From Bacteroidota bacterium (GTDB taxonomy: Bacteria; Bacteroidota; Bacteroidia; UBA8524): 64,000 bases of DNA. Below the pieces are notes generated by a model. It had not been told where the DNA came from and did not search any database. It saw only the letters and a program-made list of their open reading frames with translations. Below are positions 9,467 through 64,000 of this stretch, piece after piece (positions within the stretch are counted from its first letter, which is position 1; each line of letters begins with the position of its first letter). The position numbers and the translations under genes are program-made. Where the stretch lies: NCBI GenBank assembly GCA_008933805.1, contig WBUH01000005.1, forward strand, positions 128,822-192,821, written 5' to 3'.

Positions 9467-9577
9467 GCCGCTAAGGTAAAACGCATTGATGAAATGTGTA
9501 AGTAAAGAATAGAAAGAAACCGTTAATGACTAATTGGATATACTACCAACCCCTAATCACTAAACATTAACAACCAA

Positions 9578-21999: not shown

Positions 22000-22235
22000 C
22001 CGCTATCCACCAACAACTATCAACCACCAACATCCCCGACATCCGACATCTGACATCAGACATCCATCCCCACCAACAACCACCAACTATCAACCACCAC
22101 CACACCCCTGACATCCAACATCTGCCATCTGACATCCATCCCCACCAACAACCATCAACCATCAACAACCATCAACCATCAACTACCAACCAACAACACC
22201 CCCGACATCAAAAATTTCCTCCCCCACATTGCACA
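22000..22235. repeat. C/A-rich, G-poor degenerate tandem repeat of about 2.5 copies of a 65-75 bp unit built from CCACCAACAAC, CATCAACCA and GACATC(C/T)GACATC sub-motifs
   Basis: Read directly from the sequence. The strong strand asymmetry creates a spurious W/G-rich ORF on the minus strand. It sits immediately upstream of the head-like module. Confidence 0.7.
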
Positions 22236-22263
22236 CTTTGCACCCCCTCCAATTACAGGGCAA

Positions 22264-23440: not shown

Positions 23441-23567
23441 TTCATTGCTTTTGGGAATTGGCCTTTAACCCTTAGCAATGACACTATGCTTTCATCTGCT
23501 AAAAGCCAAAGGCTAACGGCTAATAGCGATTAAAAATACTATCAACTCAAAACGATACAACACAACA

Positions 23568-24539
23568 ATGAAACACAACTCAATTCCCCGATTGCTTAAG
23601 CATTCGTTTGCATACAGCATCAGCTCGCTGGATAACTATACCGAGCAAAACGTAGTACCCTTGGTAACCAAATCACTGTTTGGCAGCCGCACCGCCGAAT
23701 TGTTCCCCGTACAAACAGGTATCAAATCAGCCGAGGTCATCAACATCATGGACGACCAAGTGTATTTTCAAAGCGGCACAGGATGCGGCTTCACCGCCAG
23801 CGGCGATACCACCTTCACCCAACGCACCATCACTGTAGGTAAAATCAAAGTGAATAAAAAATGGTGTCCCGATGAATTGGAAAGCAAATGGACACAATTT
23901 TTGCTAAACGCAGGCAGCTACTACGAAACCCTTGTGCCCGAAGAAGCCCTTGCCGATTTTATGACCGCTATTATTGCGCAGGAAATGGAAAAAGCTTACT
24001 GGCGCGGTGATACCACCAGCGGCAACCCAAACCTGAACAAATTTGATGGTTTTGTAAAAATTATCGACGCTGCCGGAACTGCCGTAGCAGGTAACACAAG
24101 CGCGCAAACTTCTATCACAGTGGCTAACGCCGTGGCAATACACAACAATATCCTTACTGCATTGCCCGCAAGTCTTTTAGACAAAGACGATGTGGTAATC
24201 TTAGAAGGATGGGACACTTTCCGCAAATTGATTTTAGGTCTTCAAGACGAAAACAACTTCTTTTACGATGCTGCCGGACCTGATAATCACATTGCAGGCG
24301 AATTGAGGTTGCCCGGAACTAACATTCGTGTGGTGGCTGTTCACGGTCTAAACGATACCAACCGCATTTTTGCAGGCCGCAGCAGCAATTTCTTCATCGG
24401 CACTGATTTGCTGAACGATTTTGAAAACTTCAACATCTGGTACAGCAAAGACAACGACGAGGTGCGCATGAAGGCCCGTTGGAAAGCCGGCGTACAAGTA
24501 GCATTCCCCAACGAAATTGTACAATACACCAACGCATAA
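23568..24539 (+). CDS. Putative phage major capsid-like protein of 323 aa
   Basis: Size, Gly/Thr/Ala-rich composition and position after the scaffold-like gene. No motif-level proof is available without a profile or structure search. Confidence 0.35.
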   Translation: MKHNSIPRLLKHSFAYSISSLDNYTEQNVVPLVTKSLFGSRTAELFPVQTGIKSAEVINIMDDQVYFQSGTGCGFTASGDTTFTQRTITVGKIKVNKKWCPDELESKWTQFLLNAGSYYETLVPEEALADFMTAIIAQEMEKAYWRGDTTSGNPNLNKFDGFVKIIDAAGTAVAGNTSAQTSITVANAVAIHNNILTALPASLLDKDDVVILEGWDTFRKLILGLQDENNFFYDAAGPDNHIAGELRLPGTNIRVVAVHGLNDTNRIFAGRSSNFFIGTDLLNDFENFNIWYSKDNDEVRMKARWKAGVQVAFPNEIVQYTNA

Positions 24540-24656
24540 TAGCTGTTTGCTCTTGGCTCTTGGCAATTAGCTAAAAGCCAAATGCTAATTGCCAAAAGCA
24601 GCCAACCCAAAATAAAAATCAAAACTCTTAAAACATAAAACTTAACAACTAAAAAT

Positions 24657-25169
24657 ATGTCATGTGCATTAACCACAGGCTTCACGCTGGATTGCCGACA
24701 AAGCAACGGCGGTATAGAAGCCGTATATTTTACAGAAATAGCCAACAAGGCAACATTAACTGCTGCAAGCGGTGTCATCACTGCATTCACATTGGCAGCC
24801 ACTAAAAAATTCTTCAAATACGAGTTGAGAAAAAAAACAGGGCAGTTGGAACAAAACATACAGGTAAACAACGAAAACGGCACTGTATTTTACGAACAAA
24901 CTCTTACCGTTAAATTAGATAAGTTGGAGGTAAATAAACGCAACGAAATTTTGTTGCTGGCCAAAAACAACCTGATGGTAATTGTGAAGGATAACAACGG
25001 CAAATACTGGCTGGTGGGCGAAACCCGCGGTGCTTTGTTAAGTGCCGGAAAAGGAACCACAGGAACCGCCTTTGGCGATATGAGCGGCTTTGAACTAACC
25101 TTTACAGGTGAAGAGCCCGAATTGGCCAAAGAAGTTGACTCAACCCTTATTGCTACATTAACAGCATAA
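24657..25169 (+). CDS. Putative phage tail-tube / major-tail-like protein of 170 aa
   Basis: Small beta-rich protein directly after the capsid-like gene (VIVKDNNGKYWLVGETRGALLSAGKGTTGTAFGDMSGFELTF). Tentative. Confidence 0.3.
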   Translation: MSCALTTGFTLDCRQSNGGIEAVYFTEIANKATLTAASGVITAFTLAATKKFFKYELRKKTGQLEQNIQVNNENGTVFYEQTLTVKLDKLEVNKRNEILLLAKNNLMVIVKDNNGKYWLVGETRGALLSAGKGTTGTAFGDMSGFELTFTGEEPELAKEVDSTLIATLTA

Positions 25170-40095: not shown

Positions 40096-40113
40096 AAAAC
40101 AATGCTTTATTAA

Positions 40114-43053
40114 TTAATTTAATTTAAACCACTTTTCCCCGTTGCTCACTATTACAACTTTATCGTACTGTGAAGTCAGGCTGTATGATGCAGCCCCATT
40201 GATAAGCTCGCTTTCAAACCCATCGATATAAATAATATCACTTGAACTGTCGGTTTTTATAATTTCAAATATTTTACCGTTACGGTTTTGAGCTGTGGGT
40301 AAATTCACGGTAATCTCTCCATCGGTTGCATCACAAAACAACGTTCGGACAGCATCCGTAAGCGTGTAGGGAGAATCATCGTTCACGATAGAAACAGCAT
40401 CCCCCATCAACGCGGTAAAATACTTTTGGTTATTGATGTACAATACCCCGGGCTCAGTAACGGTGATGCCGCTACTGTTAATCAGTGTTACGTCTTGCAG
40501 CCCTGCCGAAATAAAATTACCCCCGCCGCCAAGCACTGTTATTCGCTCACTGCCGCTTAATACATTGTTATTAGTACCTGTAAGTAGCACCGAAGCAGAG
40601 GTGGTATCAATGGTATTAAACCAACCGGTAACTACCCGTGGTCCGTTATCAGGAGTGCCGGCAGGTGCAGCAGTGCCGCCTATTGTAGGTATTGTGTAGG
40701 TAGTTTCATTGGTTCCGAAAGTACCGCGCCCGCCATTAACCCTTGTACGGTTTTGCAATGGAGCATCAAACTCAAGTACTTTAATAAACTGGCACTTGGT
40801 AACTTTATTAAAAACAGGGTCGTAATTCTCAACTTTTAATAATCGGTAATACGCATCTTTAATAAAATAATATTTACGAAAGGACAGACTGTTAATATCA
40901 GCGGGTGTAAGATAAAACCAGCCTTCCACCAGTTTACTGTTAACGTCGGTTATCTCCTTAATTTGTGCATACCAATACCTTGTGTATAGGTTTTGGTTAG
41001 TGTATTCAAACAAGCGTTCTGATGTAGATTGATAATACACTTCAAACGGCGGGGCAAAACTCAGGTCAAATGTGCTTGAGTAGGGGTCGTCCAAATGACC
41101 GCTGTAAGGGTATTCATCAAATGGATAAGGACTAAAACCTGATGCATCAAATTGCCAACGTTCACACTCCTTTAACCCTCCGTAATACAGCAGGCGTATT
41201 TTACTTGCTTTTGAGGTAACAGGGGTTTTGTTGTCAGAAAAAGCTATGTAAGGCAAAACCCTTGAGTTAGGGTCGTTCAGCTCCTTAAACAAAGGTGTTG
41301 GGGCAAAAATTATCTCTATTTTTTTGGTGCTTTTTACAAAATCATTGTCAATTTTCAGCTTGTAGTCGCCATACGTGCGGTCAAAATTATTTTTATAGGT
41401 TTTATTCAATAAATCCCCGTCATCAGCATATTTAAAATAATATTGCCCTGCATCTAATGCCGACATCGGACTAATTGTGAACTCCTTACTTATATCCAAT
41501 TTATCGGTCCAGTCAGTAGACTGTCCGGTATAATAATCTGCCCTTGGTTCAATAATTAAATCCTTTTCTTTATCAGCGTTAGGTTCGGTATATAAATTAA
41601 AAGCCTTAATGATAGAGCCTAAAAAGTCACGTTGCTTAATCCCTGTCGGGATGCAAGAGTTAAGCGAAACTTCCTCCCCTTCGCTTACCTTAGCACTTGA
41701 TACTCCATTGGCAAAAAAAGTATTAGAAGTGGCTGCTGTAATTAGCTTATAACCGGGTCGTTTCTCTGATAAATATTTATATCCGTTATTAAGTACCAAA
41801 TAATCCAGCCGTATCGGGGCAACAAAAATTTGTTCGCCTTCTTTAATAGTTACCTCGTTTGATTGTAAAACCGCCGTTTTTTGGATACTGGTGATATTAT
41901 GACCCACCGATACAGGGTGTGTTTGTGGTGCAAAATATACGTTTGAGTTTACTGAACATAAGTGTTTATCAACTCCGGATACCCTGTGAACAATACTTAA
42001 AACAATATTAAAGTCGTTGTAATTATAATTATAGGTGGTAAAAGAGGTATTACGCACCTTACAATCAACGCTGGCTTTAAACTTATATTTACCTGTTTTA
42101 TTGCATGTAAATATTCCCGTAGTATTATCGTATTGAAATGAATTATCAAAATAGGGACTGCCGCTGTCGATATCAAAAATTATCGGCGAAACTCCCGAAA
42201 AAGAACCCGGGTCAGGAAGGAAATCAGTAGTTAATTCTGCTGAAAGTCCTGCGTAAAACAATCGGCTTTCAACTTCATCTTTGCTTAATAAAAACTGCTC
42301 GCTATTAAACGGTACAATCAGCCGCTTAAAAAATTCAGAATTAAAAAAATTACTGGTATAGGTAAATCCCGCCTTTTCAAAAATCTTATCAAGGTATTGT
42401 TTCACGTATATGGCAGGCCTAAACTGCTCAACACCCCAATGATCTTCGGCTGTGCCGGGGGTATATCGTTTTTGGTAGCCGTAATCAACCATCGGATACA
42501 CATATCCTTTACCCAACGCAAACGGAACTGTTACACCATCCTCATAAATTTGGGTTTCCCAAGAGTCAGCAATATTTCCACGGCTATAAATGTGGTCAAA
42601 CTCACTCATGTCAAGGTCGGTCAATTCACCTTTTACCACATTGCCCAAACTGTCTTTTTGATTATCAATGCTGGCAAACAAATTGCCTACCTCACCGTAA
42701 CAAACAATTTTATATTCAATCTTATTACCCTGCTCCACCACAATGTCCTTCAACTGGCAATAGCCTTTTAATTGGGTCAGGCTGTCAATAAAAATAATAA
42801 CGGGGGCTTTTTTATTGGGGTTAAAGTGTTTCACTGCCTGTCCCGTGTCAGGCTCACTTAAATCCACATTCACATCAAAAAGGTACCCGAACAACAGATC
42901 ATTGTTTGTGCTGCCGGGTATTTCAATCGTAAGAGTACGGTCGGTTTTTCGTTGCTCAGGGTTTTGTATGTCCACCAACTGCTTGGTAATATTCAAACTC
43001 ACCTCTTTCAGCAAATCAATCTGTGTACTATTAATAACTATTTGTGTTCTCAT
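40114..43053 (-). CDS. Large beta-rich protein of 979 aa, putative phage tail / host-specificity (Tal/fibre)-like protein
   Basis: No signal peptide. Overlaps the upstream gene by 4 nt. The call rests on size and position only. Confidence 0.3.
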   Translation of the reverse strand: MRTQIVINSTQIDLLKEVSLNITKQLVDIQNPEQRKTDRTLTIEIPGSTNNDLLFGYLFDVNVDLSEPDTGQAVKHFNPNKKAPVIIFIDSLTQLKGYCQLKDIVVEQGNKIEYKIVCYGEVGNLFASIDNQKDSLGNVVKGELTDLDMSEFDHIYSRGNIADSWETQIYEDGVTVPFALGKGYVYPMVDYGYQKRYTPGTAEDHWGVEQFRPAIYVKQYLDKIFEKAGFTYTSNFFNSEFFKRLIVPFNSEQFLLSKDEVESRLFYAGLSAELTTDFLPDPGSFSGVSPIIFDIDSGSPYFDNSFQYDNTTGIFTCNKTGKYKFKASVDCKVRNTSFTTYNYNYNDFNIVLSIVHRVSGVDKHLCSVNSNVYFAPQTHPVSVGHNITSIQKTAVLQSNEVTIKEGEQIFVAPIRLDYLVLNNGYKYLSEKRPGYKLITAATSNTFFANGVSSAKVSEGEEVSLNSCIPTGIKQRDFLGSIIKAFNLYTEPNADKEKDLIIEPRADYYTGQSTDWTDKLDISKEFTISPMSALDAGQYYFKYADDGDLLNKTYKNNFDRTYGDYKLKIDNDFVKSTKKIEIIFAPTPLFKELNDPNSRVLPYIAFSDNKTPVTSKASKIRLLYYGGLKECERWQFDASGFSPYPFDEYPYSGHLDDPYSSTFDLSFAPPFEVYYQSTSERLFEYTNQNLYTRYWYAQIKEITDVNSKLVEGWFYLTPADINSLSFRKYYFIKDAYYRLLKVENYDPVFNKVTKCQFIKVLEFDAPLQNRTRVNGGRGTFGTNETTYTIPTIGGTAAPAGTPDNGPRVVTGWFNTIDTTSASVLLTGTNNNVLSGSERITVLGGGGNFISAGLQDVTLINSSGITVTEPGVLYINNQKYFTALMGDAVSIVNDDSPYTLTDAVRTLFCDATDGEITVNLPTAQNRNGKIFEIIKTDSSSDIIYIDGFESELINGAASYSLTSQYDKVVIVSNGEKWFKLN

Positions 43054-44255
43054 AAACGTTGGCGGTAATTAGGTTGTGCTAATTGAATAGTAAGATTTAG
43101 GCTAAACAGCTTTTTGTTGGCATACTTTTTTACCTCGTAACTATCTTCAGTTATAGTTACTGCAACCGTTTTCTTTGGGTCTGACGGATCAATTTGCCAA
43201 TACACGGCCGGACTACCTGCCAGCTCTTGCAGCCAAACACTTTCTTCCTCCGTTATCCAGCCTGTATTTATTGAGTATTGCTCCGTTTCAACAGTATCAA
43301 AGTTTACTGTACCCCGTGCATACGAGTTATTTGTCCAAGCCATCGTATCCAAATCTGTATAGCCTGTAAACTTTTGGTAACCGCTGCGCTTAAACTGTGT
43401 AGTTTGCTTATGGCTGCCCGTAAACGTATAGCTGTCAAACCGTCCTAAACGGTTCAGAAAGTGCAACCTGAATAACTGATGGCGACCACAATCCCTATCT
43501 ACCACAAACGTGAAAGTCTCGCTAACTGGGCTGTTATCGCTTGCTAAAAAAACCACCGTGTAGCGTACCACCTCACTGGTAATGATACTGCCGCCCAAAT
43601 TGTATGGGCCGCACATAAAATCAAGCGAGTAGCTGATGCCTTGGTCGCTGCCTGAATACAACGTATGAGTAACTGTATAGGCATTAATCACTCCGCCCGC
43701 TGCATTGTATGTAGTTACCAACGCTTTAGACACCTGTTTACCAATAGAGATATGGCTCAGCGATGCGGCCTCATCCTCCCTTATTTTTAATGTGCGAGGC
43801 GAGTTTGTAAGCAGTCTCCTTTGTGTACCGCTTAACAAATCATAGTCGGTATAATCAAAGTCAATCCAATCAAGGTATTTCAACGCTGCATTAAATGCGT
43901 ACCCCGAAGCCGAAACCATACCGCTGGCAATAGGAAGGTTGTTTATTTCTTCGGTAAACTCAACCTTATAATCAGCCATTGTACCCCTTGCCACCTTAAA
44001 TCCTGTTGCACCTTTAGCAAGATTTTCAATTACAGGATTGTAGCGGGGTTCAAGCATACGGTGCACATCCGCTTGTATGTAGTTACCGTGCGGCCACTTA
44101 TCATATTTAAGTGTTTTTTTCAGCGTGCCTGCATGGTACACCTTAACTACCATTTTAAAATATTGGGTGGCCGCCAACGTGCTGCCCACAATAAACATCA
44201 TATCATTGTACACAGGGGTGAGTGCCTGCGGACGGTTGTGAAGTGTAATTGCCAT
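43050..44255 (-). CDS. Hypothetical protein of 401 aa, first gene of the tail-like operon (possibly a distal tail / baseplate-like protein)
   Basis: ORF is confident. The function is tentative. Confidence 0.3.
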   Translation of the reverse strand: MAITLHNRPQALTPVYNDMMFIVGSTLAATQYFKMVVKVYHAGTLKKTLKYDKWPHGNYIQADVHRMLEPRYNPVIENLAKGATGFKVARGTMADYKVEFTEEINNLPIASGMVSASGYAFNAALKYLDWIDFDYTDYDLLSGTQRRLLTNSPRTLKIREDEAASLSHISIGKQVSKALVTTYNAAGGVINAYTVTHTLYSGSDQGISYSLDFMCGPYNLGGSIITSEVVRYTVVFLASDNSPVSETFTFVVDRDCGRHQLFRLHFLNRLGRFDSYTFTGSHKQTTQFKRSGYQKFTGYTDLDTMAWTNNSYARGTVNFDTVETEQYSINTGWITEEESVWLQELAGSPAVYWQIDPSDPKKTVAVTITEDSYEVKKYANKKLFSLNLTIQLAQPNYRQRL

Positions 44256-44948: not shown

Positions 44949-45599
44949 ATGAACATAGCAAAAAATTGGAACCAGATTTCTATAGGGCAGTTTCAGCAAA
45001 TAAATGCCGCCATTAAAAACTACCCTGATAATGCCATCACCCAAGCGGTTTGGATACTTAGCGCACTCACCGAAAATACCCGAGATGAGTTGCTTGCCCT
45101 TGATTTTACAAAAGATTTTAAACCCCTGATGCGTCAACTGGATTGGATACACAGTACCGCCCTACCCACCCAATTACCCAAACAGTTTGAATTGGAAGGC
45201 GAAAACTACCAATTGGTGTATGATATGAAACAGCGTACCACCGGACAGTTTGTCGATTTGGCTCATTTCACAGCCGACCCTGAGCAAATCATTCCCAACC
45301 TGCATTTCATACTTGCAGTGCTGTGCATACCTGTAGGTCAAAAGAACCATGCCGATGGCTTTGAACAACGGGCAAAGCTGTTTCAGCAAAAGCTAAGCAT
45401 AGCCATCGCATACCCAATTGCCACTTTTTTTTTGAAGCTTTGGGTCGACTCGTTGCCGCATATCCTAACTTATTTGGAACAACAAGCCGCCCCGAAGAAG
45501 AAGTGGTGGATGAAGATAATTGGTTCACTGCGCGCTACGGGTGGCTGGCTACGATTGATTCGGTTGCGGAAAACCGCACCCAATGGGACTTCTACCTGA
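44949..45599 (+). CDS. Hypothetical protein of 216 aa
   Basis: ORF only. Confidence 0.4.
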   Translation: MNIAKNWNQISIGQFQQINAAIKNYPDNAITQAVWILSALTENTRDELLALDFTKDFKPLMRQLDWIHSTALPTQLPKQFELEGENYQLVYDMKQRTTGQFVDLAHFTADPEQIIPNLHFILAVLCIPVGQKNHADGFEQRAKLFQQKLSIAIAYPIATFFLKLWVDSLPHILTYLEQQAAPKKKWWMKIIGSLRATGGWLRLIRLRKTAPNGTST

Positions 45600-45674: not shown

Positions 45675-46226
45675 ATGAGCAATATTAATCAGCTACTTCG
45701 CCAAGCGTTTGAAGAGTTTGCAACCACTATTGAAACCGAGGCTCATAAAATATTGGCCGACGAGGGATTAGAAAAGGTGATACCCCAAACTGAAATCACC
45801 GATACTGCATTTGGAGTGAGTTATGAGTTTAGCCTTAGCGGACTTAACCCTTACATTGAATATGGCGTGAAAGGGGTTTTTTATACCCGCAAAGGGGCTG
45901 AAAACAGCCCCTTTCAATACAAACATTTAGGGCCATCGGAAAAAATGATTGACAATATCTTCTCATGGACATTGAAGAAAGGAATATTCGCCAAGCCTAA
46001 GAAGGCATCCCTTAAAAACAAACAGCCGAAAGAAGAAACAAGTAAAACAATTTACGACCGACAAATTGCATTAACGTTTGCCATAGCCCGAAATGTAAAA
46101 AAGCGGGGAATAGCACCCAAAGGGGTATTAACACAATTATTTACCGAAGAACGATTAAAAGAATTGTCTGAAAAAGTATCTGATATTGTCTGCAGAGAAA
46201 TTACCATCCAAGTAGCAAAACTGTAA
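45675..46226 (+). CDS. Hypothetical protein of 183 aa
   Basis: ORF only. Confidence 0.4.
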   Translation: MSNINQLLRQAFEEFATTIETEAHKILADEGLEKVIPQTEITDTAFGVSYEFSLSGLNPYIEYGVKGVFYTRKGAENSPFQYKHLGPSEKMIDNIFSWTLKKGIFAKPKKASLKNKQPKEETSKTIYDRQIALTFAIARNVKKRGIAPKGVLTQLFTEERLKELSEKVSDIVCREITIQVAKL

Positions 46227-48794: not shown

Positions 48795-48898
48795 GATTTT
48801 AGTTTCAAGTTTTTAGTTTTCAGTTTCAAGTTGCTTTTGGCAACCACATCAATGTATATAATTTGCACATTATCAAATTTGCACATCGGCACATTTGA

Positions 48899-52604: not shown

Positions 52605-55600
52605 TTACCACACCTGCCAGTCAAATCCTGCCGTTTCGGTGCGGCTGGTAGGTCGTTGTAAACCATCTGTCAGTCTCTCCACCTCAGTTCCTACAAATGT
52701 TTTTAACTCTTGTACGGTACAGGTTTGCTTTTCAGCTAATAACTGTAATACACAATAAGTAAATACCCCGTTTTGCAGCTCGCCCTTTTCATACGCTACT
52801 TGTGTTCCCGCCGCCGCTGATATAATTGTCGTCCCGGTACCTCTACCCACATCAGCAAACATTTCCTGCATCAGTTCAAAACTATTTTTCAGCCCCACAA
52901 CTTGCTCATCATCCACCAGCAATTCTATACCATTTTTGCCCCCGTTATTAATGTGCTTAGCAGTATCGGAGAAAACCACCCGCATGCTCTCCATCTCATC
53001 TTTATCCACCTCACCGCTGTGGCAGGCATCAATCAACAACAGCTTCCTGCGCATAGGCAAACTGTCAAGTAACTGTTCCATCATCGTATACGGCAACCCG
53101 CCCTCATTAGGGTTTCTAAAATTTACCATGTAAGTAGACAAATAATACTCCAGTTGTTTATCCAACAACCCATGCCCTGAGTATGAAACTATTAAACGGT
53201 CATTTACATTCGCTTGTAATAATCTGTTTCGCAATGCCATTACCTTTTCAAGCGATACATTGCTATTAAACAGAGTATCTATCACCAATTGGTCGCCAAG
53301 TTTTGCTTTTAGCCCCTCTGCAAAATTTACAATGTCTTTAACACTGTATTTGAGATTATGTCCCGGTTCTTTAAATTCATCAATTCCTATACCTATAAAA
53401 TAGATTTTAGAAGGGTTCGCTTCGTACTCAGCAACGATAGTAATTGTTTCGGTGGCGGATTTTACGCCGTTTACATCCGTTGCATATACTTGTACCACAT
53501 TATTGCCTTTTTGCAACTTCACTTTGCAATTCACCTTCGCTTCTCTTCCACCTGAAACGGGCATCCCCTCTTTGCCAAACACAGGTACTCCGTTAGCCAT
53601 AACTTGCAGTTTACTAACATCCGCATACAACGAACTGAGGGCTATTTCTAACACTACTTCATCAGAAGTTAGCACCAACGGAAGTTGGCTTTTGTTTACA
53701 ATTTTTACCTCAGGTTCTTTACCAATAATGTTCTCTATTGTTTTTGCTTTAATTCTCCGCAAACGTTTCGCAACAGCCCCCTTCAATAACTCGTTGAACG
53801 CTTCGTTAGACGACCCCGAAAGCAAAACAACCGTATCCGGACGGTTAAAATAAATATCATATTCAACGGGTAAATACCCTTTGCCTTTATAAGCAAACGC
53901 AAGGTTATTAACCGCTGATTTATCCCCTCGATAAAGATAATTATTTGCTACCTCAATAAACTTGCGACCCGCATAAGAGGTAAAATACAACTGTGTATTA
54001 TCATTTAATACCGTGTACATTTCTTCTTCAGTAGAAAACGTGAAACCATTACTTAAATGATTTACGTGAAAAAACGATTCACGCGGGGTTTGCTGCCACA
54101 ACAACTCACGATTGCTTAACTTAGCTACATACAGCTCGCTATATGCTTCAAATGCAACTCTATCCGCTCGCATATCTACTTCAAACGAAAAGAACCGACT
54201 ATCAGTAAATTCATACTTCTCTTTGGGTGTCGCTACTGATAAGTCAATACTATAAACCTCATTAATCAATTCACGACCATTTTTGGCTGTCCAATAATTG
54301 GTGCTATACCACAACACATCAAGGGTCTTATCAAACGTAAAATATCTTACCTCTACATCCTTTTTAAGCTCTATGGTAAATACTTTTTTAGCGCTCACCC
54401 AATCCCATATTTCTATACTGTGCCGCTTTTCTCCGGCATTTATTATTGCTAAGTATTTTTTTGAAGGGGAAACCGCAAACAATTCACCTGAAAACAGCCG
54501 TTTTAATTTATTTATCTCCAAAATCACCCCATTATTATTCACTACCATTACAGCATTATCACCTGCCAAGGCATAATTCCCCTCTGTCAATTTATTTACA
54601 TTAATAATAGATTTGGGAAGCTTTTCTTCACTAATATTTTCTGTCGAAAATATTGGCCCTAAAATATTCAACTCAGCATTAAAATCAATAGTATAACTAC
54701 TTAGTTGCATTTTATTAAACAGCAGCTTACACCACTTAGTCTGATTGTATTTAATAATGGCAAGGGAATTTTCTTTACTATCCAACACAAACTTGCACCA
54801 TTTGCAAGCTATAGTAGTAGGTTGGGTTTTATTGCTTGAAAATACCACAAGAGTATCTGAACTATAATCCGCTTTATAGGCTATGATGTGGTAATTTCCC
54901 TGTTCATCAAATACCTTAAAAAATTGCGAGTATTTATCCTGTAATTGAATTTTTCGGAATGCAGGTTGGAATTTTTTGCGGTTAATATCGTATAAATCTT
55001 GATTGCGAGATGAAGCAAACAAATCCTGAATATCATCCGTTGCTGAAAGTAATTGTGTGCTGTCAGTACTCCAACAATAAAACTTAGCCATGTTGAAGGA
55101 AATAGGATAATGTAATGTATCCGCAGTAGATAAACTTACTTTTAGTAAACGACTAAAGCCATAATTCACTACTACACTATTTTCATTTGGGTACTTTAAC
55201 ACCCTAAATATTGAAGACGAAGAGGCTAACATACTGTATTTATCAACAGGATCTTGCCCATCTAATAATAATTCGTGTTCGCGCTTCCCGTCTTTATAAA
55301 TACATATTCGTCCGTCGCCATAATCACCCCCCACATATTTAGCTGCTTGCGAAGGGATTGCAACTATACTTTTACCAACAGCTAACAGTTGATGAATGGC
55401 TGTGTCAAAGGCTCTGAACAAAGTGTTTTGTTGCAAACTCTCATTAATTCCGACGACATCTCCCGATAACGTCCCTGCCAATATTACACCATTTTGGGCC
55501 TGTGCTGCGAATGTTGTTATAAGATGTGCTGTTGGGGCAGTTTGTGTAACGGTTTCTGTCTTGGCATCAACTAAATATAACTTACAGTTAACAGGTCCTA

Positions 55601-56111
55601 AGTATTCGTTTTTCCCCTTATTATCAATTAAATAACTTATTGTGCTGTCCTTCTTCATAGGGTAGGTTTTAGTATGAATAAGCACTTTGGTTTCATCATC
55701 AGGCCACAGGGTAAAACTCTCTATTATCTCAGGAAATTTAATTTGGTTAAAAAAAGTATCCACCTTGCCGGTAATAAGATCGGCTTTTACTAATACCGAC
55801 CCAGTAGAGATCAATACTGTTCCATCAGCCATTAATGCTGTTTTGCCCACTCCTTGTGCCCCCCAACTACCTGCCTCAAATACCAACGTGCCTACCTGTA
55901 TTTTAGAGGTTTGGTCAATCAACGTGTAATTATTCCCGCTAATTACTAAAAACCAACTACCCTTTGCACTCGATTGCACATCCTCCAACCCTAAATCAAA
56001 CGTTACTTGGCTCACCAATTTGGGCATGGTTTGCCCATAACCCACCGTTACAAGAAAAACAATAGTAAAAAGAAGTATGAAGCGATGTATTGCCTGTTTC
56101 ATTACAGGCAA
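52605..56111 (-). CDS. Secreted 1168-aa protein with a beta-propeller (WD40/PQQ-like) region and a C-terminal caspase-like (peptidase C14) domain
   Basis: Signal peptide. The caspase domain, at about 52605-53420, holds a His in YSGHG and the catalytic Cys in LLLIDACHSG, so both dyad residues are present. Confidence 0.7.
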   Translation of the reverse strand: MPVMKQAIHRFILLFTIVFLVTVGYGQTMPKLVSQVTFDLGLEDVQSSAKGSWFLVISGNNYTLIDQTSKIQVGTLVFEAGSWGAQGVGKTALMADGTVLISTGSVLVKADLITGKVDTFFNQIKFPEIIESFTLWPDDETKVLIHTKTYPMKKDSTISYLIDNKGKNEYLGPVNCKLYLVDAKTETVTQTAPTAHLITTFAAQAQNGVILAGTLSGDVVGINESLQQNTLFRAFDTAIHQLLAVGKSIVAIPSQAAKYVGGDYGDGRICIYKDGKREHELLLDGQDPVDKYSMLASSSSIFRVLKYPNENSVVVNYGFSRLLKVSLSTADTLHYPISFNMAKFYCWSTDSTQLLSATDDIQDLFASSRNQDLYDINRKKFQPAFRKIQLQDKYSQFFKVFDEQGNYHIIAYKADYSSDTLVVFSSNKTQPTTIACKWCKFVLDSKENSLAIIKYNQTKWCKLLFNKMQLSSYTIDFNAELNILGPIFSTENISEEKLPKSIINVNKLTEGNYALAGDNAVMVVNNNGVILEINKLKRLFSGELFAVSPSKKYLAIINAGEKRHSIEIWDWVSAKKVFTIELKKDVEVRYFTFDKTLDVLWYSTNYWTAKNGRELINEVYSIDLSVATPKEKYEFTDSRFFSFEVDMRADRVAFEAYSELYVAKLSNRELLWQQTPRESFFHVNHLSNGFTFSTEEEMYTVLNDNTQLYFTSYAGRKFIEVANNYLYRGDKSAVNNLAFAYKGKGYLPVEYDIYFNRPDTVVLLSGSSNEAFNELLKGAVAKRLRRIKAKTIENIIGKEPEVKIVNKSQLPLVLTSDEVVLEIALSSLYADVSKLQVMANGVPVFGKEGMPVSGGREAKVNCKVKLQKGNNVVQVYATDVNGVKSATETITIVAEYEANPSKIYFIGIGIDEFKEPGHNLKYSVKDIVNFAEGLKAKLGDQLVIDTLFNSNVSLEKVMALRNRLLQANVNDRLIVSYSGHGLLDKQLEYYLSTYMVNFRNPNEGGLPYTMMEQLLDSLPMRRKLLLIDACHSGEVDKDEMESMRVVFSDTAKHINNGGKNGIELLVDDEQVVGLKNSFELMQEMFADVGRGTGTTIISAAAGTQVAYEKGELQNGVFTYCVLQLLAEKQTCTVQELKTFVGTEVERLTDGLQRPTSRTETAGFDWQVW

Positions 56112-57596: not shown

Positions 57597-59903
57597 TTAC
57601 CAGCCGCCACCGCCGCCACCGCCTCTGCCACCGCCACTATACCCCGAACCTTTTGACGCACTGCCTGAATTAGTAGATTTTGAGACTGAACTTTTTGAGC
57701 TATTGCTTTCCGAGGCTCGTAGAGCTTCCGCTTCTATTTCTTTCTTTTTATAATCCACTAACTGCTTCAACTCTTCTGTCCTTCTGCTCAACATTTCAGC
57801 GGCAGCCCTGTCGCTACTATGCCTGAAAATTGTCAAATCAGGTCTATGTTTCTCTTCGCTTTCAGTAGTATTACTGTTGAGTTCCTCTGTTATTTCAGTC
57901 AACCTTCTTTGATAAAAGTTACTGTAATCAACCCCCCAACTTCTTCTCATACTGTTTGATAACAGATAATAACCACCGGTAGAGTAAACAACGCTGTTTA
58001 CCATTGTATTCTCTGCAAACCCGTCTGCTTCCAATGATTTCTTAATCGAATTTCCAAACGCAGAGGTCCATTCCTTTAAGCAATCTAAGGCAATTGCATA
58101 GGGCAACATTTTCTCAGGCACAAAATCCGCGTTAGGCTTGTTAATAGTGTTCATCCGCTGCGAGTCGGCAGTCGCTAAAAACATTCTCAGCCCCAAAATT
58201 TTGTTCAACAATGTTTCACCCGCTTGCGTGTACTTGGTATATCTTAAATCCAAAAGTTTGTGAACCAAGGCACACAACACAATTCCGGTTAAATAATACA
58301 CAAAGGTTAACGCCGAAGGCTTATAGTGAATAGTCATTAATAAAACTGAAATTGCCAATGAAACGCCGATTAGAACACGTCCCCATATTTGCCCGCCTCT
58401 TTTATAGACAAACAATGCAGCATTCTTATTTTTTGAGTCACAATACCTTTTCACCTGTGCATCAAAATAGGCAACTTCTTCACTTGCCTTGTCCGGCTTA
58501 ATATGGCCCGTCACAATTATTTCGGCATCCTCTATTAGCAGTTGTTCTGCCTCCTTACCGAAAGGTACTTTTTTATCAGTAGCTGCAATTAAATAATTGC
58601 CGCTACCGCTGCTATCTGCCGAAATAGTCAGGTATTTATTTACAGCTAAGTTTACCAAACTTGCAATGGTTTGGGATGGCTCATACCCTTTGTGGTAAAT
58701 ATAGCCTGCAAGTGCCGGGTTTACATCGTCGGGGGCTGTAAACTCAGGCACTATATTGGCCTTATTTTTATTCGAAGCCTTTAGTTTTCTCCAACCAAGT
58801 ATTACAAGGTTTCTAATCAGTAACAGGATAGCAACCCATATCATAAAAAAGGGGCCGCTGTTAGAAAACAAAATAATTGACCATTCAGGTTCACGGGAAA
58901 TAATGCCTTCAGGGATTGAGCAAGCAATGGTTAACCCTTCATTCTTTAGCATTCCTCCGTTTGCAGCAAAAACAAGACTTGAGGTTTTCGCGTCAAATTT
59001 ACCGTAGCAGTCTTTGGCAGAATCTCCATATTTTCCGGTGTAGCAAGAGAAAGAGTTTACTGTTGACCCCTCAGGAAACTTAACTGCGCAACTAATACTG
59101 TCAATATCAAACTCCCAACCATTCCCATTTACGTTCCAATACAGTTCATCATACCCTTCACCATACTTAAATGGCCTTTTTACAGTATAAATTATTTTAT
59201 AAACATGACTGCCAAATGATAAAATGGAGTCAGGATTACCAATATATAGCAGTTTACTTCCTGCTTCAAAATCATCGTCATATTTTACAGGCTGGTTGTT
59301 CAAGAGGATGCTGTCAACCCTAACAATCATTTTAAAATTAAGTCCTGAGCCTATATCATAACTATCAGGTATATACCTGACAATTCCTTTATTTATAGAC
59401 CCTGTTTCTGTGTTTAAAACCGCTATGGTCTCCACAACACGCATGGTTCCATCCTGGCGGATTTCAAAATCGGCGTGAAATGATTGAATTTTATCTGCCG
59501 CCAAACCGGCCTCAAAAACACTTTTAAGGTCATCCATCGCCTTAATTGTTGCCTTTGCTATATGTTTAGTGAGTTTACCGAACTCTTTAGCCTTCCCTTT
59601 TTTTGTAGCTATGGACTCTTTGCCGGGTACTACGTCTGCTCTATACAAAACCTCATCCCAAACTTTTTTATTAAATCCTTCTTTAACAGAATTAAAATAT
59701 TTTTCGAATTTTTTATTATCGAATTTGGAATCAGAAATTTTATTTGAATACACTAAAATACTGGCATCTATCGCACTATCTATTTGATGATCTACACAAT
59801 AGTGAAGCTGTTTTCCGTTACCATCTAAATATTTTTGTGTTTGGCTATACGATACATTAAAAATACCAATAACCAGCAGCAGGAAAAGTAATACCCTCAT
59901 CAA
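57597..59903 (-). CDS. DUF2207-family membrane protein
   Basis: Signal peptide, a large extracytoplasmic domain, transmembrane helices, and a characteristic poly-Gly C-terminus (GGGRGGGGGGGW). Confidence 0.65.
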   Translation of the reverse strand: MMRVLLFLLLVIGIFNVSYSQTQKYLDGNGKQLHYCVDHQIDSAIDASILVYSNKISDSKFDNKKFEKYFNSVKEGFNKKVWDEVLYRADVVPGKESIATKKGKAKEFGKLTKHIAKATIKAMDDLKSVFEAGLAADKIQSFHADFEIRQDGTMRVVETIAVLNTETGSINKGIVRYIPDSYDIGSGLNFKMIVRVDSILLNNQPVKYDDDFEAGSKLLYIGNPDSILSFGSHVYKIIYTVKRPFKYGEGYDELYWNVNGNGWEFDIDSISCAVKFPEGSTVNSFSCYTGKYGDSAKDCYGKFDAKTSSLVFAANGGMLKNEGLTIACSIPEGIISREPEWSIILFSNSGPFFMIWVAILLLIRNLVILGWRKLKASNKNKANIVPEFTAPDDVNPALAGYIYHKGYEPSQTIASLVNLAVNKYLTISADSSGSGNYLIAATDKKVPFGKEAEQLLIEDAEIIVTGHIKPDKASEEVAYFDAQVKRYCDSKNKNAALFVYKRGGQIWGRVLIGVSLAISVLLMTIHYKPSALTFVYYLTGIVLCALVHKLLDLRYTKYTQAGETLLNKILGLRMFLATADSQRMNTINKPNADFVPEKMLPYAIALDCLKEWTSAFGNSIKKSLEADGFAENTMVNSVVYSTGGYYLLSNSMRRSWGVDYSNFYQRRLTEITEELNSNTTESEEKHRPDLTIFRHSSDRAAAEMLSRRTEELKQLVDYKKKEIEAEALRASESNSSKSSVSKSTNSGSASKGSGYSGGGRGGGGGGGW

Positions 59904-59907
59904 TTAA

Positions 59908-60462
59908 TTATTTATCGGTAAAGTTAACTTTAGGGACTTTCTTGGCTTCAGGGTCTTCTGTAAAAAACACTTCGGGCTTAAACCCGAACATCCCGGCGAT
60001 AAGCACCTTAGGAAATACCGCTATCGATTGATTGTACTCCCTAACAGTACCGTTAAAATACTTGCGAGCTTCTCTTATATGCTCTTCTGTTTCGGTTAGT
60101 GTGTCGTACAAATCTTTAAAATTTGAATCTGCTTTTAGCTCAGGATAGTTCTGCGATATAGCAAATACATTTCGCAAAGCCGAGCTAAGACCAATCGCTA
60201 CCTCGCCTTGCTCTTTTGCTCCAACTGCAGCAATACCCTTACTGTGCCACATAGAAATTTCTTTCAAAATCTCTTTCTCGTGCGAGGCGTACCCTTTTAC
60301 AGTTTCAACAAGATTCGGTATCAAATCAAGTCGTTGTTGTAAATATGCTCCCAAAGTGCTTTGGCCTTCATGCACCAAAATACGTTCCTTTACTAACTCG
60401 TTGTAAATACGTACTACAAAAAATAAAATAGCTAATAAAACAATTCCTAATACAACTACCAT
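59908..60462 (-). CDS. LemA-family protein
   Basis: N-terminal transmembrane segment and the LemA signature (YNELVKERI ... QRLDLIPNLV). A LemA gene is commonly paired with a DUF2207 gene. Confidence 0.85.
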   Translation of the reverse strand: MVVVLGIVLLAILFFVVRIYNELVKERILVHEGQSTLGAYLQQRLDLIPNLVETVKGYASHEKEILKEISMWHSKGIAAVGAKEQGEVAIGLSSALRNVFAISQNYPELKADSNFKDLYDTLTETEEHIREARKYFNGTVREYNQSIAVFPKVLIAGMFGFKPEVFFTEDPEAKKVPKVNFTDK

Positions 60463-60634
60463 TTTAATTACAGTGATTTTAAAGTGTAATAATACTCCAT
60501 TCTACTATTTAATACAAATAAAGCGATGGTTTAATACCCTTCATTGTTAAAAAAGTAAACGCCTAAAATGTAGAGATATACATTACTTTATAATTTTTTT
60601 TGAAACAAAAACATCCCGTGCCAATTACAGGGGG

Positions 60635-61030
60635 ATGATACTGATAAATAAAGGCACCAACAACTTGGTTATCTTCACTCTGAAGGAAAAAACCACCCGC
60701 CCCAATCCTAAATACCTCTTCGAGTTTAGTAACTCTCAAACTAACGAAAGTATTACTTGTATCGCAGCCGATACCTCTGACTACCCCGAGCGTTATAATA
60801 GTTTTGAGATAGTAGAAATTACCAGCCCCAGCCCGCTGCTAGCACAGGTAGAGCTTACCCCCTCAGGTTTTTGGGAATACAAGGTATATGCTCAAGACAG
60901 TGCTACAAACTTACAACCCGCCAATGCCGACGAACTGGTTGAAACAGGGTTAGCCTACGTGGTGGGCACCGCTGAAACCACCTATACTTATAATGACCAA
61001 CCCACTAACGCATTTATATACAATGGATAA
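60635..61030 (+). CDS. Hypothetical beta-rich protein of 131 aa (phage-like locus 3)
   Basis: ORF only. Overlaps the next gene by 8 nt. Confidence 0.35.
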   Translation: MILINKGTNNLVIFTLKEKTTRPNPKYLFEFSNSQTNESITCIAADTSDYPERYNSFEIVEITSPSPLLAQVELTPSGFWEYKVYAQDSATNLQPANADELVETGLAYVVGTAETTYTYNDQPTNAFIYNG

Positions 61031-62276
61031 GCAAAAACACTTTTTTACAACCTTGCAAGTGCCTACGTGGCATAAACCGCCCCGATTTAAGGAAAGCCGC
61101 CGTTTCGATTGGGTTAATTATGGTGAAGCGAACGATTACCCCGACTATCTGATAAATCTTTTTAACGGTTCGCCTACCCATCAAGCCATTGTGAGCGGCA
61201 AAAAAGATTATATTTTTGGTAAAGGGGTAGAAATACCCAATAGCCCAAACACCGCTGATGCTGCTAAACTGCAACAGTTAATTCACAGAGCCAACCGCTT
61301 CGAATCGTTGAACCAATTGCTTGAAAAATTGATTCTAGATTATGAGCTTTTTAATGGTTTCGCTGTAAAAATCTACCAAAACATTGTTACAGGTAAGATT
61401 AGCGAGATGTACCACGTAGATTGGGCTACTTGCCGTATCAACGAAGACGCATCGGTAATTTACACTTCAAAACAGTGGACTGAGCAACAGTCGCTAACGA
61501 ACAAGTTTGCTGGAAGTACCCGTCAACCGGAAGACTTAAGAGGCCTCCCCGCTTTCGATATCAACGTTCCTCAGCGTGAAAGCATTTTGTATTTCCGTGA
61601 GTATAGCCCACAAATGAAGGTGTATCCATTACCGGGTTATTTAGGTTGCAATGCTTCCATTGAAACCGAAATAGAAATCAGTAACTTTCATCTAAACAAC
61701 ATAAAAACAGGGTTTTCTGCAGGCACCCTGCTTACATTTACTAACGGTGTGCCCACCGAAGATGAGCAACGGGATATTGAACGTCAGGTAAAGCGCAAAG
61801 TGGCGGGAACGGATAATGCGGGTGAAATTATATTATACTTTACAGACGGTGTAGAAAGTACCCCTCAAATATTACAACTGCGCCCCAACGATCTTGATAA
61901 ACAGTACGACCAACTTAAACAAACAGTAATGGACACCATTTTTGTGGGTCATAAAGTTACCAGCCCAATGTTGTTTGGTGTTAGGGCACCCGGCCAACTG
62001 GGAGGAAGAAATGAACTAAGGGAAGCTTACGAATTGTTTCAAAACACCTACGTCAACAAACGCAGGCAAACTATTGAGCAATTGTTGAAAAACCTTGCTG
62101 AAACCAATGGCATCAGTACGCCATTATGCCTTACTCCAACCGAACCGATCGGTTTAGGAATGTTGTTGAGCGAGCAGGACATTAGTGAAGTACTTACTTC
62201 TGATGAAAAACGTCGCTACTTGGCACAAATAGGTTTCCCTATCACTGTCAGCGATCCATCAATTGCAGATAATTAA
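61023..62276 (+). CDS. Putative phage portal-like protein of 418 aa
   Basis: Size and context only. No P-loop is present, which argues against a terminase. Tentative. Confidence 0.3.
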   Translation: MDKQKHFFTTLQVPTWHKPPRFKESRRFDWVNYGEANDYPDYLINLFNGSPTHQAIVSGKKDYIFGKGVEIPNSPNTADAAKLQQLIHRANRFESLNQLLEKLILDYELFNGFAVKIYQNIVTGKISEMYHVDWATCRINEDASVIYTSKQWTEQQSLTNKFAGSTRQPEDLRGLPAFDINVPQRESILYFREYSPQMKVYPLPGYLGCNASIETEIEISNFHLNNIKTGFSAGTLLTFTNGVPTEDEQRDIERQVKRKVAGTDNAGEIILYFTDGVESTPQILQLRPNDLDKQYDQLKQTVMDTIFVGHKVTSPMLFGVRAPGQLGGRNELREAYELFQNTYVNKRRQTIEQLLKNLAETNGISTPLCLTPTEPIGLGMLLSEQDISEVLTSDEKRRYLAQIGFPITVSDPSIADN

Positions 62277-62317
62277 TCCATTACAAATTTTCTTACACTA
62301 TCAATTAGCAAATCCTT

Positions 62318-62893
62318 ATGGAACAGGTCTATTTTATATCCGCCGACAGGCTGAAAGAAGATACCGTGATTAATGAGAACACGGATAATAAGTTAATCTC
62401 ACCCACAATACTCATGGTGCAGGATATTTATATACAGGGTATTATCGGCACCTCATTATACAACGAGTTGAGAACTCAGGTAAAGGCCGACACTGTAACA
62501 GCCCTTAACCAAACATTGCTTAATGACTATTTACAACCGGCTATAAAACACTATTGTATGGCCGAACTGTGTCTGCCGCTTACGTATAAGTTCATGAATA
62601 AATCCATCGTAACAAAAAATAGCGAGAACAGTGTTACTGCCTCACCGGAACAACTAAGTCAGATAAAAAACTATTACCTGAACCATGCGGAATGGTACGC
62701 GAAACGTATTGTAAAATACCTGCAGCAAAATCAATCTAAATACCCTTTATGGCTGAGCGGAAATACTACTATTGATGCCATTCACCCAAGAATCAACACT
62801 TATCACACAGGTATGTTTTTGGGAAATACTCGTGGGAATTCATTCTCAACCTCATTACCTATTGATAACGGCGAAAACAATTGTTGCGAATAG
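62318..62893 (+). CDS. Hypothetical protein of 191 aa (phage-like locus 3)
   Basis: ORF only. Confidence 0.35.
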   Translation: MEQVYFISADRLKEDTVINENTDNKLISPTILMVQDIYIQGIIGTSLYNELRTQVKADTVTALNQTLLNDYLQPAIKHYCMAELCLPLTYKFMNKSIVTKNSENSVTASPEQLSQIKNYYLNHAEWYAKRIVKYLQQNQSKYPLWLSGNTTIDAIHPRINTYHTGMFLGNTRGNSFSTSLPIDNGENNCCE

Positions 62894-62962
62894 TTATGAA
62901 TGAAAAGAGAATAAAAAAAGAAAACATCCAAAAATTACTCAATTATCTAGAAAAGAAAGACC

Positions 62963-64000
62963 ATGCAGTTTCAGACAAAAAATCAGGTAATAACAAAACT
63001 AAGGCAACTGGCTGAAAGTCATTTACTAGTCCGTGGGTTTGGCTATGGTGACCGTTGGGAACTTGAATCAGCTATGACCAAAGTGGATGGTACAACAATC
63101 GGACTCACCCATCCTTCAAAGCAGCCGTTTATGTGGGTTACCCCCATAATAGCCCGTGTAACCGAAGGTAGTCTCTTTTATGATTTTGAAATAATTGTAG
63201 GCGACTTGGTGAAACGGGATGAAAGTAATGAACTGGAAGTGGAGAGTGATACTTTACTTATTTGTTTGGACATCCTCTCAAAACTAAACGATGAAAGCTA
63301 TGAATGGGCTCTTTCAAAGCAAAGTAATCTTCAACCCTTTACCGAAAAGTGGGACAGCGAATTTACGGGCCACATTATGAATGTATCGCTGGAGTTTATG
63401 TTTGATTATGACTATTGTCAAGTTCCATTTACACGTCCGGATGAAGACATCACTGCATTTCTTGCGGCTACAGGCATTGACGATGAAACACAAATATTTG
63501 CCATTACTTATTTAGTAACGCAACTAAAAGAAAACGGACTTTGGAACAAAATGCACGCTCTATACCCGTTTGTAGGCGGTACGGCAAATAGGCACAGTAT
63601 AAACCTAAAAAATCCGGCTCAGTATAAAATAACGTGGAGTCCAACGGGAGTGACCCACAACGCAAATGGTATAACCGGAGACGGAATAGCCGGCTATGGC
63701 GACACCGGTTATATTATCGCCGCTGCAAACAAAGACAACTTCCATATGTCAGCTTATATAAGGAATGATGTTAGTGCTGGGGCTAAATGTGCTATCGGAG
63801 GCACTAGTGACAGTAATGTAATTCAACTCTTACCGTTTCAAACGGGAAATCTCTTCCAATCTTCAATAAACCAAAATACTGCATCAACAGCTTCAAATGT
63901 TTCTTCGAAAGGAAATTATATAGGTAGTAGACTTGCCCCAAATCGTTCAATTGCGTATAAAAATGTCACAAAATTATTTGAAAACACCACTGTGAGTACT
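62963..64000 (+). CDS. Hypothetical protein, at least 346 aa, 3' end outside the window; phage structural-protein-like
   Basis: I translated this by hand from the ATG at 62963. There is no stop codon before the window end. The conserved-looking N-terminal domain is followed by a Gly/Ser/Thr/Asn-rich region typical of fibre or adaptor proteins. Confidence 0.4.
   Translation, partial: MQFQTKNQVITKLRQLAESHLLVRGFGYGDRWELESAMTKVDGTTIGLTHPSKQPFMWVTPIIARVTEGSLFYDFEIIVGDLVKRDESNELEVESDTLLICLDILSKLNDESYEWALSKQSNLQPFTEKWDSEFTGHIMNVSLEFMFDYDYCQVPFTRPDEDITAFLAATGIDDETQIFAITYLVTQLKENGLWNKMHALYPFVGGTANRHSINLKNPAQYKITWSPTGVTHNANGITGDGIAGYGDTGYIIAAANKDNFHMSAYIRNDVSAGAKCAIGGTSDSNVIQLLPFQTGNLFQSSINQNTASTASNVSSKGNYIGSRLAPNRSIAYKNVTKLFENTTVST

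Follow-up and report, generated by a model that had tools for sequence, protein, structure and literature searches.

The sequence analysed here, referred to as the window, is a 64,000-nt stretch of contig WBUH01000005.1 from a Bacteroidota bacterium. Near its right-hand end lies a compact cassette of five open reading frames (ORFs), one of which encodes a phage portal protein. Our preferred explanation is that it represents the portal, neck and fibre module of a domesticated phage of ancient origin, whose genes would now form a scattered, host-owned particle set resembling a gene transfer agent (GTA). We give this reading a probability of roughly 60%, and its parts differ in strength. That the 417-amino-acid (aa) product is a phage portal is practically certain, and it is likely that the portal belongs to a scattered set of particle genes kept by selection. 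The proposal that the particles are GTAs is a tentative one.

The portal cassette and its genes

The ORFs are co-directional on the plus strand between 60635 and 64000, where the original prediction had placed them, and the first two do share 8 nt (Table 1). The predicted sizes of 131, 191 and 39 aa and of at least 346 codons were correct, but the second ORF encodes 417 aa rather than 418. A longer reading of that ORF from 60993 (427 aa) was unsupported by homologues or by gene calls on other contigs. As predicted, no signal peptides were seen, the N-termini being read by eye only. The cassette had also been described as a third phage-like locus, separated from a tail-like operon by isc, mce, crp, a caspase gene and tnaA. 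That operon ends at 44255, 16.4 kb from the cassette, the genes between are as listed, and the remaining two loci proved to be this phage family's head and tail modules.

In full, the cassette measures ~3.8 kb and ends ~450 bp past the window, as seen on contig L183, where the portal is 99% identical, and on L002. On both contigs C4 is followed by a 91-aa protein (p91), which has a membrane helix at its N-terminus and also a coiled coil; convergent host genes come next, a 213-aa gene and then relA/spoT. The original prediction had named an ordinary metabolic operon downstream as a sign against a phage locus; ordinary genes do begin beyond this end, and portal homology was found. Because relA follows the cassette on near-identical contigs, a self-contained prophage was rejected. 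The cassette occurs in identical order in at least eight independent assemblies with portal identities of 79–99%, a recurrence far beyond that of a chance set of ORFs, and relA flanks it in L002, L003, L004, L005, L007 and L183. No att-like repeats flank it. Scans gave no Rfam match and no tRNA, and scans for sigma-70 promoters and terminators stayed at chance level. The PADLOC defence profiles did not match C1, the portal, the DUF6712 protein, C4 or p91.

The portal call was borne out by PHROG, Pfam and NCBIfam profiles and by a structural model matched to solved portals. PHROG portal families were matched with E = 1e-34 and 3e-33. The score against Pfam Phage_portal (PF04860) was 37.8 bits, 1.3 below the gathering score of 39.1, and a precomputed Pfam match is on record for the same protein. 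The NCBIfam profile portal_PBSX was covered over positions 9–315 of 320 with E = 2e-14, at a score of 53 bits that lies far under the equivalog cut-off of 166. An AlphaFold2 (AF2) model made from a 77-sequence alignment reached a predicted local distance difference test score (pLDDT) of 78. When PDB was searched with this model using Foldseek, all 50 top matches listed were portal or neck entries. They include phage 7-7-1, the Rhodobacter capsulatus GTA (RcGTA), 812, HFTV1, HK97, T5 and lambda, with E from 3e-11 to 1e-6, 375–480 aligned columns and template modelling (TM) scores of 0.4–0.65. Alignments with solved portals took in ~390–440 columns at E = 1e-11 to 1e-7 and so reached along essentially the entire protein. 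Phage homologues of the portal sit between the capsid, A4 and C1 genes on one side and the DUF6712 and fibre genes on the other.

Portals of the phage family are 560–690 aa long and carry a C-terminal winged-helix (MarR/Lrp-like) domain together with the motif ...RGGWY..P.T....P.CRH.W.Q (P0011–P0120). The winged helix is retained by part of the chromosomal clade (~497 aa) and is lost in the window branch (417 aa), a stepwise loss. A DNA-binding domain fused to a portal is unusual. A MuF-like domain in the phage portal C-termini, suspected from the PxCRHxW motif, received no support from Pfam. Identities within the portal family show a clear gap, with chromosomal relatives at 76–99% and all other sequences at 47% or less. 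The nearest portal among the 2.9 million viral contigs of IMG/VR is 42% identical, and that of the nearest isolated phage 27%.

The neighbours of the portal are those expected in this phage family. Dozens of uncultured phages, and phage P12024S, have homologues of C1, C3 and residues 1–158 of C4 arranged around the portal in the same order. C1 has homologues in 86 loci and in this family always lies directly upstream of the portal, as the positional equivalent of P12024S gp05. It had no match among Pfam, PHROG, NCBIfam or PDB profiles and, from the position of its gene, is probably a virion or neck component. Compared with L002:9613-10008, C1 shows 85% identity and a synonymous divergence (dS) of 1.68, against 98–99% and ~0.23 for the portal, DUF6712 and tnaA; this looks like a recombination import or an allele swap at the upstream edge of the cassette. 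C3 always follows the portal, is collinear with P12024S gp08 and matches Pfam DUF6712 with 88 bits (cut-off 25; E = 6e-25). Its position and helical content only make it a candidate head-to-tail adaptor. A single-sequence AF2 model of C3 was helical, at a low-confidence pLDDT of 43, and a literature search found no mention of DUF6712. The p39 peptide is kept in seven of the eight clade members, including the part outside the overlap with C4, is absent from L008, and is predicted as a gene on Logan contigs.

C4 was described earlier as having a fibre-like region. It is a fusion; by gene position, its N-terminal domain would be a neck or tail-proximal one and its C-terminal part fibre-associated or receptor-binding-like. 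Contigs 96–99% identical to the window give its full length as 404 aa. Residues 1–158 correspond to a separate protein of 145–212 aa that follows DUF6712 in phages, and residues 159–404 (246 residues) to a separate 261-aa phage protein encoded downstream of a 567-aa fibre gene. The profile search proposed for the region from 62963 onward, against head-tail adaptor or fibre families, did give matches, but to phrog_26223 and phrog_17104, both of unknown function. PDB profile searches with C1, DUF6712, the C4 N-terminal domain and A4 returned nothing significant, the best for that domain being a 'nozzle protein' at E = 2.7. Comparing the C4 N-terminal domain with A4, profile against profile, gave a negative result.

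Dispersed pieces, selection and a shared motif

In IMG/VR contigs of 31–39 kb, in P12024S, and in L009 and L184, the phage block is contiguous. Its order is small terminase (TerS), large terminase (TerL), p216, p183, B3, B2, B1, protease, scaffold, major capsid protein (MCP), A4, C1, portal, DUF6712, the C4 N-terminal domain, fibre and lysin. In the window the block lies in at least four pieces (18–20, 22–25, 37.6–46 and 60.6–64.4 kb) that span at least 46 kb in mixed orientations. Between them are purA, fur, iscSUA, the methylmalonyl-CoA epimerase gene (mce), crp, a caspase-like gene, tnaA and the LemA/DUF2207 pair. Compared with the contiguous block, the pieces are fragments of one ancestral phage structural block, so that the portal locus is no prophage and no element of its own.

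Each piece was related to its phage counterpart. PHROG capsid and structural families also match piece A, the head module. P12024S gp01–gp03, which lie directly upstream of that phage's portal, match the window at 22.3–25.2 kb, away from the window portal. Piece B, the tail module, follows the gene order found between the terminase and head genes of related phages, and its arrangement is repeated in the independent assembly L096. Its B1 protein is only 61% identical to that at L096:14245-16281, between assemblies of the same species whose neighbouring genes are 95–100% identical; B1 is a hypervariable or recombining tail component. The genes p216 and p183, divergent from piece B, are those that follow the large terminase in phages, and gp42 is the P12024S counterpart in this region. 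Piece D matches phrog_7162 with E = 3e-55. Its glycosyltransferase is 39% identical to L103:3283-4362, the regulators of the two loci align over their full length (E = 8e-5), and contiguous relatives carry this regulator-glycosyltransferase pair upstream of the terminase.

Relatives show further arrangements. L004 and L005 carry the head piece 6.5 kb upstream of the portal piece, and L007 has its tail, head (inverted) and portal pieces all inside 14 kb. The piece order of the window is repeated in the independent assemblies L002, L003, L096 and L183, and the clade includes two complete 3.8-Mb chromosomes, L004 and L007 (the latter being OZ244977.1). The junctions of the window are repeated in independent assemblies and two relatives have complete chromosomes, so the scattering is real.

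Selection was measured as the ratio of nonsynonymous to synonymous divergence (dN/dS) between the genes of the window and those of seven relatives; synonymous sites were saturated in most pairs. The phage-derived genes are all open, and dN/dS is 0.02–0.07 for all except A2 (0.07–0.19), C1 (0.05–0.16), p216 (0.16) and the weakly conserved p183 (0.30). In the cassette, values were 0.017–0.04 for the portal and 0.03 for C3. C4 is the fastest-evolving cassette protein (47–96% identity), yet its ratio is 0.05–0.06. Piece A, apart from A2, gave 0.04–0.07, with the MCP at 0.04 and the protease at 0.05. Host genes from the same genome pairs, used as controls, gave 0.02 (tnaA) and 0.04 (iscS). The ORFs are intact in at least eight lineages with saturated synonymous sites (proportion of synonymous differences, pS, 0.7–0.88). 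Since they stay open at such divergence, they are not neutral sequence. In the closest pair, the window and L002, dS is 0.23 for the portal, 0.225 for tnaA and 0.27 for iscS, and across genomes RelA identity tracks portal identity (85% versus 84%, 81% versus 82%). By these measures the phage-derived genes are vertically inherited and diverge in step with the host.

A bipartite motif precedes three of the phage-derived gene sets, at C1, A1 and p216. The exact 12-mer CCAATTACAGGG has only two copies in the 64 kb, at C1 and A1, where ~0.008 would be expected from sequence length alone. At C1 it is preceded by TTGAAACA and at A1 by TTGCACAC; p216 carries the variant pair TTGCAGAA and CCAATTAACAGCC. 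Within the window, A1, p216 and C1 are the only long ORFs with CCAATTA 13–14 nt ahead of the start codon ATG, and a TTG(C/A)A box lies 20–24 nt upstream of each site. Both elements of the motif are kept upstream of the orthologues in genomes with saturated synonymous sites, and phage relatives have TTTGCACAAAA-N10-TTATACTTAT at the same position. The motif is a putative promoter or operator common to the pieces.

Tandem heptamer repeats were also considered as an element-specific signal and rejected, since they precede housekeeping genes as well. Such heptamers (ACCAACA, CCGACAT, ACCAATT and AAATTTC among them) fill many 5′ leaders of phage-derived and housekeeping genes, for example at 22003–22197, 48797–48832 and 617–636 of the window, at L103:2670-2755, at L176:9650-9705, and at L178:8047-8100 and 9491-9545. 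They seem to occur genome-wide in these Bacteroidia.

Two neighbours of the phage-derived pieces deserve mention. The LemA/DUF2207 pair (also at L004:3335-6046) always adjoins some phage-derived piece, with varying place and orientation: it lies upstream of C1 in the window, L003 and L183, lies downstream of A4 in L004 and L005, and is absent from L002 and L007. The caspase-like gene encodes a protein that is 64% identical between the window and L003, with flanking genes at ~94–97%, and may be a fast-evolving defence gene.

Table 1. Positions of the phage-derived genes, upstream motifs and selected neighbours in the window
Feature	Position	Strand	Description
Piece D	17955-19560	-	regulator and glycosyltransferase, overlapping
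Glycosyltransferase	17955-19061	-	phage-type; piece D
Putative regulator	19045-19560	-	171 aa; piece D
Motif at A1	22229-22260	+	TTGCACAC, 12 nt, CCAATTACAGGG (22249-22260), 3 nt, ATG
Piece A (head module)	22264-25169	+	protease, scaffold-like, capsid, A4
A1	22264-22860	+	XkdF-type prohead protease; Pfam Peptidase_S78_2, 44 bits
A2	22847-23440	+	scaffold-like; piece A
MCP	23568-24539	+	major capsid protein; piece A
A4	24657-25169	+	170 aa; piece A
Piece B (tail module)	37666-44255	-	proteins of 401, 979 and 809 aa
B1	37666-40095	-	809 aa; coiled-coil, tape-measure-like; PHROG tape measure, E = 5e-11
B2	40114-43053	-	979 aa; piece B
B3	43050-44255	-	401 aa; piece B
Motif variant at p216	44911 onward	+	TTGCAGAA, 16 nt, CCAATTAACAGCC at 44935
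p216	44949-45599	+	follows large terminase in phages
p183	45675-46226	+	follows large terminase in phages
Caspase-like gene	52605-56102		1165 aa; C-terminal Peptidase_C14; PADLOC 'caspase' model, E = 7e-8
LemA/DUF2207 pair	57597-60462		
Motif at C1	60600-60632	+	TTGAAACA (60600-60607), 13 nt, CCAATTACAGGG (60621-60632), 2 nt, ATG
C1	60635-61030	+	131 aa
Portal	61023-62276	+	417 aa; complete portal fold (profiles, AF2/Foldseek)
C3	62318-62893	+	191 aa; DUF6712 (PF20459), all-helical
p39	62896-63015	+	39-aa Lys-rich peptide; shares 53 nt with the start of C4
C4	62963-64000 (window end)	+	346 codons in the window; full end ~64177

Weighing the explanations

That the protease, scaffold, capsid, portal, neck and tail genes are all constrained together indicates that particles are very probably still built. 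As in GTAs, the structural genes are chromosomal, lack integration and replication functions and mobility as a unit, and descend vertically under purifying selection. The contiguous genome, integrase, att sites and replication, packaging and lysis modules of a temperate prophage were not found in the sequence examined. A portal implies DNA packaging, so a GTA-like use would be the most likely one, dependent on a terminase not found so far.

Several observations weigh against the reading of the cassette as part of a GTA-like set. A TerL hidden Markov model (HMM) built from 165 sequences detected positive controls but gave no match in the window or across ~190 kb of loci from the clade, and the TerL clusters that were checked had no member on the two complete chromosomes of the clade (OZ244977.1 and OZ252261.1). 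Neither an endolysin nor a holin was identified in the window or the ~190 kb of clade sequence, and C4 is not followed by the lysin and the 567-aa fibre gene present in the phages. The capsid gene (L007:7478-7529) and C4 (L007:12250-12260) of L007 each have a 1-nt homopolymer deletion, with the remaining sequence conserved; these frameshifts are likely long-read errors and could be real recent decay. Instead of a promoter, the bipartite motif could be a feature of translation initiation. The 171-aa protein of piece D was considered as a sigma factor; it had no Pfam match and is kept as a putative regulator. Gene position is the sole source of the roles proposed for C1, the DUF6712 protein and C4. 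Lastly, all genomes are metagenome-assembled.

The missing terminase was also sought by tblastn with the TerL of P12024S and by database searches with the TerLs of a second chromosomal clade and of isolated loci; none was tied to the window clade. The candidates P0144 and P0152 proved to be ordinary phages. The second clade (L092, L094, L103) carries a contiguous block with a portal of 411–416 aa that is 45% identical to that of the window. It keeps TerS/TerL, the regulator-glycosyltransferase pair and a LexA/CI-like repressor, and is found beside dnaE or in NAD-kinase neighbourhoods; no integrase or replication genes lie within 10 kb. In L103 (1396-21038, on the 218-kb contig Ga0364860_10005) the element is ~24 kb long. 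Besides the gene for a 416-aa portal and the head and tail genes it includes a ParB-like gene, a methyltransferase and DUF5131, and its flanks consist of housekeeping genes. This clade may represent an earlier stage of the same domestication. Isolated TerS-TerL pairs were found among ordinary genes at L176:9709-11155 (158-kb contig) and L178:9649-11167 (98-kb contig). The two pairs are 78% mutually identical, have a dN/dS of ~0.12 and have different neighbours, which suggests that the packaging genes of this phage family persist also as stand-alone loci. No tie to the window clade was found for the terminases of the second clade or of L176 and L178.

The absence of terminase, lysin, integrase and replication genes from the window and the clade sequence examined could be read as the mark of functionless prophage debris awaiting decay, and the lost C-terminal domains of the portal and the two frameshifts in L007 would fit. 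However, inert sequence does not account for low dN/dS (0.02–0.06), for intact ORFs in at least eight saturated lineages, for co-divergence with relA and tnaA, or for a conserved motif, and recent reinfection is countered by the lack of any viral relative above 47% identity. We consider debris improbable and strongly disfavoured. Still less probable is an active or inducible prophage or satellite, possibly dependent on a helper phage. Its appeal is that gene content and order within the pieces are those of real phages and that the contiguous clade has a LexA/CI-type repressor. But the pieces, with purA, fur, iscSUA and tnaA interspersed, are spread over 46 kb or more, compared with 31–39 kb for the phage relatives; no integrase, att repeats or replication genes were found; and the relA-side position stays fixed while the host diverges. 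Moreover, the cassette is absent from the 2.9 million viral contigs at >42% identity. Purifying selection, dS equal to that of host genes and the identity gap of the portal thus tell against debris and active prophage alike.

The same selection and scattering would be expected of a domesticated particle with another use, such as killing, carrying protein or other cargo, or acting as a decoy or defence against related phages. Such a particle would perhaps need no terminase, in agreement with the lack of one near any piece. The strong variation of the receptor-like domain of C4 and of B1 between close strains is also as expected of a surface-targeting device. Yet the portal, prohead protease, scaffold and capsid are all strongly constrained, and tailocins, the known killing particles, have discarded exactly these head genes; we know of no role for a portal without DNA packaging. 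We therefore regard another use as unlikely. The idea that the scattering itself is false, produced by assembly or binning, is scarcely credible. All sources are metagenome assemblies and several are taxonomically mislabelled, but the same junctions occur in assemblies from different projects (the window, L183, L002, L003 and L096), and L004 and L007 are complete. As to the labels, contigs with the cassette (L002, L006, L009 and P0009) are assigned to Agrobacterium sp., Burkholderiales, Brevundimonas sp. and Oscillatoria amoena, which are probably binning or contamination errors.

Under the GTA-like reading, the ancestor would be an Inhavirus-like Bacteroidota phage of the PBSX terminase family that became a fixed part of the chromosome in an uncultured lineage of Bacteroidia. 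Its pieces would act together as one host-owned regulon through the motif before three of them and possibly through the 171-aa regulator. The portal would form the dodecameric vertex of a capsid built by the 22–25 kb piece, and the DUF6712 protein and the N-terminal domain of C4 would close the portal and adapt it to the tail from the 37.6–44 kb piece. The variable C-terminal domain of C4 would contact target cells. DNA would be packaged through the portal by a terminase encoded elsewhere. After C4 comes only p91, and neither lysin nor integrase nor replication genes were found in the window or the ~190 kb of clade sequence.

Relation to known systems and significance

RcGTA and the other alphaproteobacterial GTAs likewise carry phage head, portal and tail genes in the chromosome and lack modules for integration or replication; they share vertical descent, purifying selection and distribution over several loci. 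The RcGTA portal is also among the best structural matches to the portal of the window. There is no sequence kinship beyond the portal fold, so the set arose independently, out of a Bacteroidota phage family. RcGTA has been described as having a multi-locus 'genome' with its core in one cluster (PMC5026251), and its structure is available (PMC7296036). The terminase, portal, capsid and tail genes of RcGTA share a single 15-kb cluster, with only accessory genes elsewhere, whereas here the head, tail and portal-neck genes are themselves split. FpGTA of Faecalibacterium is a recent candidate GTA outside the Alphaproteobacteria with two operons ~125 kb apart (PMC12946183), and its structural genes are, as here, divided between chromosomal operons. 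It belongs to another phylum and has another phage ancestry, and there is direct evidence that it packages host DNA. For the putative particle described here, no terminase or lysis genes were found in the window or the ~190 kb of clade sequence.

The closest cultured viruses are the Nonlabens (Persicivirga) phages P12024S and P12024L (Inhavirus), whose gene order is collinear with that of the window. In P12024S, gp01–gp03 correspond to protease/scaffold, capsid and A4, gp05 to C1, gp06 to the portal and gp08 to DUF6712, followed by the fibre gene; portal identity is 27%. Inhavirus-type phages and their IMG/VR relatives differ from the window in being contiguous at 31–39 kb, with terminase, replication and lysis genes and with portals of 560–690 aa that carry the winged helix. 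PBSX of Bacillus subtilis shares a PBSX-type portal, an XkdF-type protease and, in the phage family, a 'PBSX family terminase'. Unlike the system here, it is contiguous and SOS-inducible, with terminase and lysis genes of its own. Retained by its host, the PBSX particle packages host DNA (PMC12946183).

The cf-PICI satellites, which are tail-less, are contiguous excisable islands with integrase and replication genes. They resemble the present case in that head and portal genes form a small set in the chromosome, with no full phage genome around them. Contiguity, excision, integrase, replication genes and tail-lessness do not apply to the window locus, which has no integrase and no att repeats.

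A 2026 survey of known GTA hosts names few lineages, and Bacteroidota is not listed (PMC12946183). It is possible, though doubtful, that the particle described here is the first GTA of this phylum: an independently domesticated Inhavirus-like particle with its modules arranged as dispersed operons under a private promoter motif, kept for DNA exchange. The second clade and the isolated terminase pairs would then be intermediate stages of domestication.

An environmental clade of Bacteroidia thus keeps phage head, tail and portal genes at housekeeping-level constraint, though these are no longer able to make up a phage genome. Prophage finders would miss such loci or label each fragment a 'prophage remnant', and the conserved motif offers a handle for finding the rest of the regulon. 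The phages, the contiguous reduced elements and the scattered regulon form a natural series in which the domestication of a phage may be studied. If the particles are made, they would give this dominant environmental phylum a route of DNA exchange or cell targeting that has gone unrecognised.

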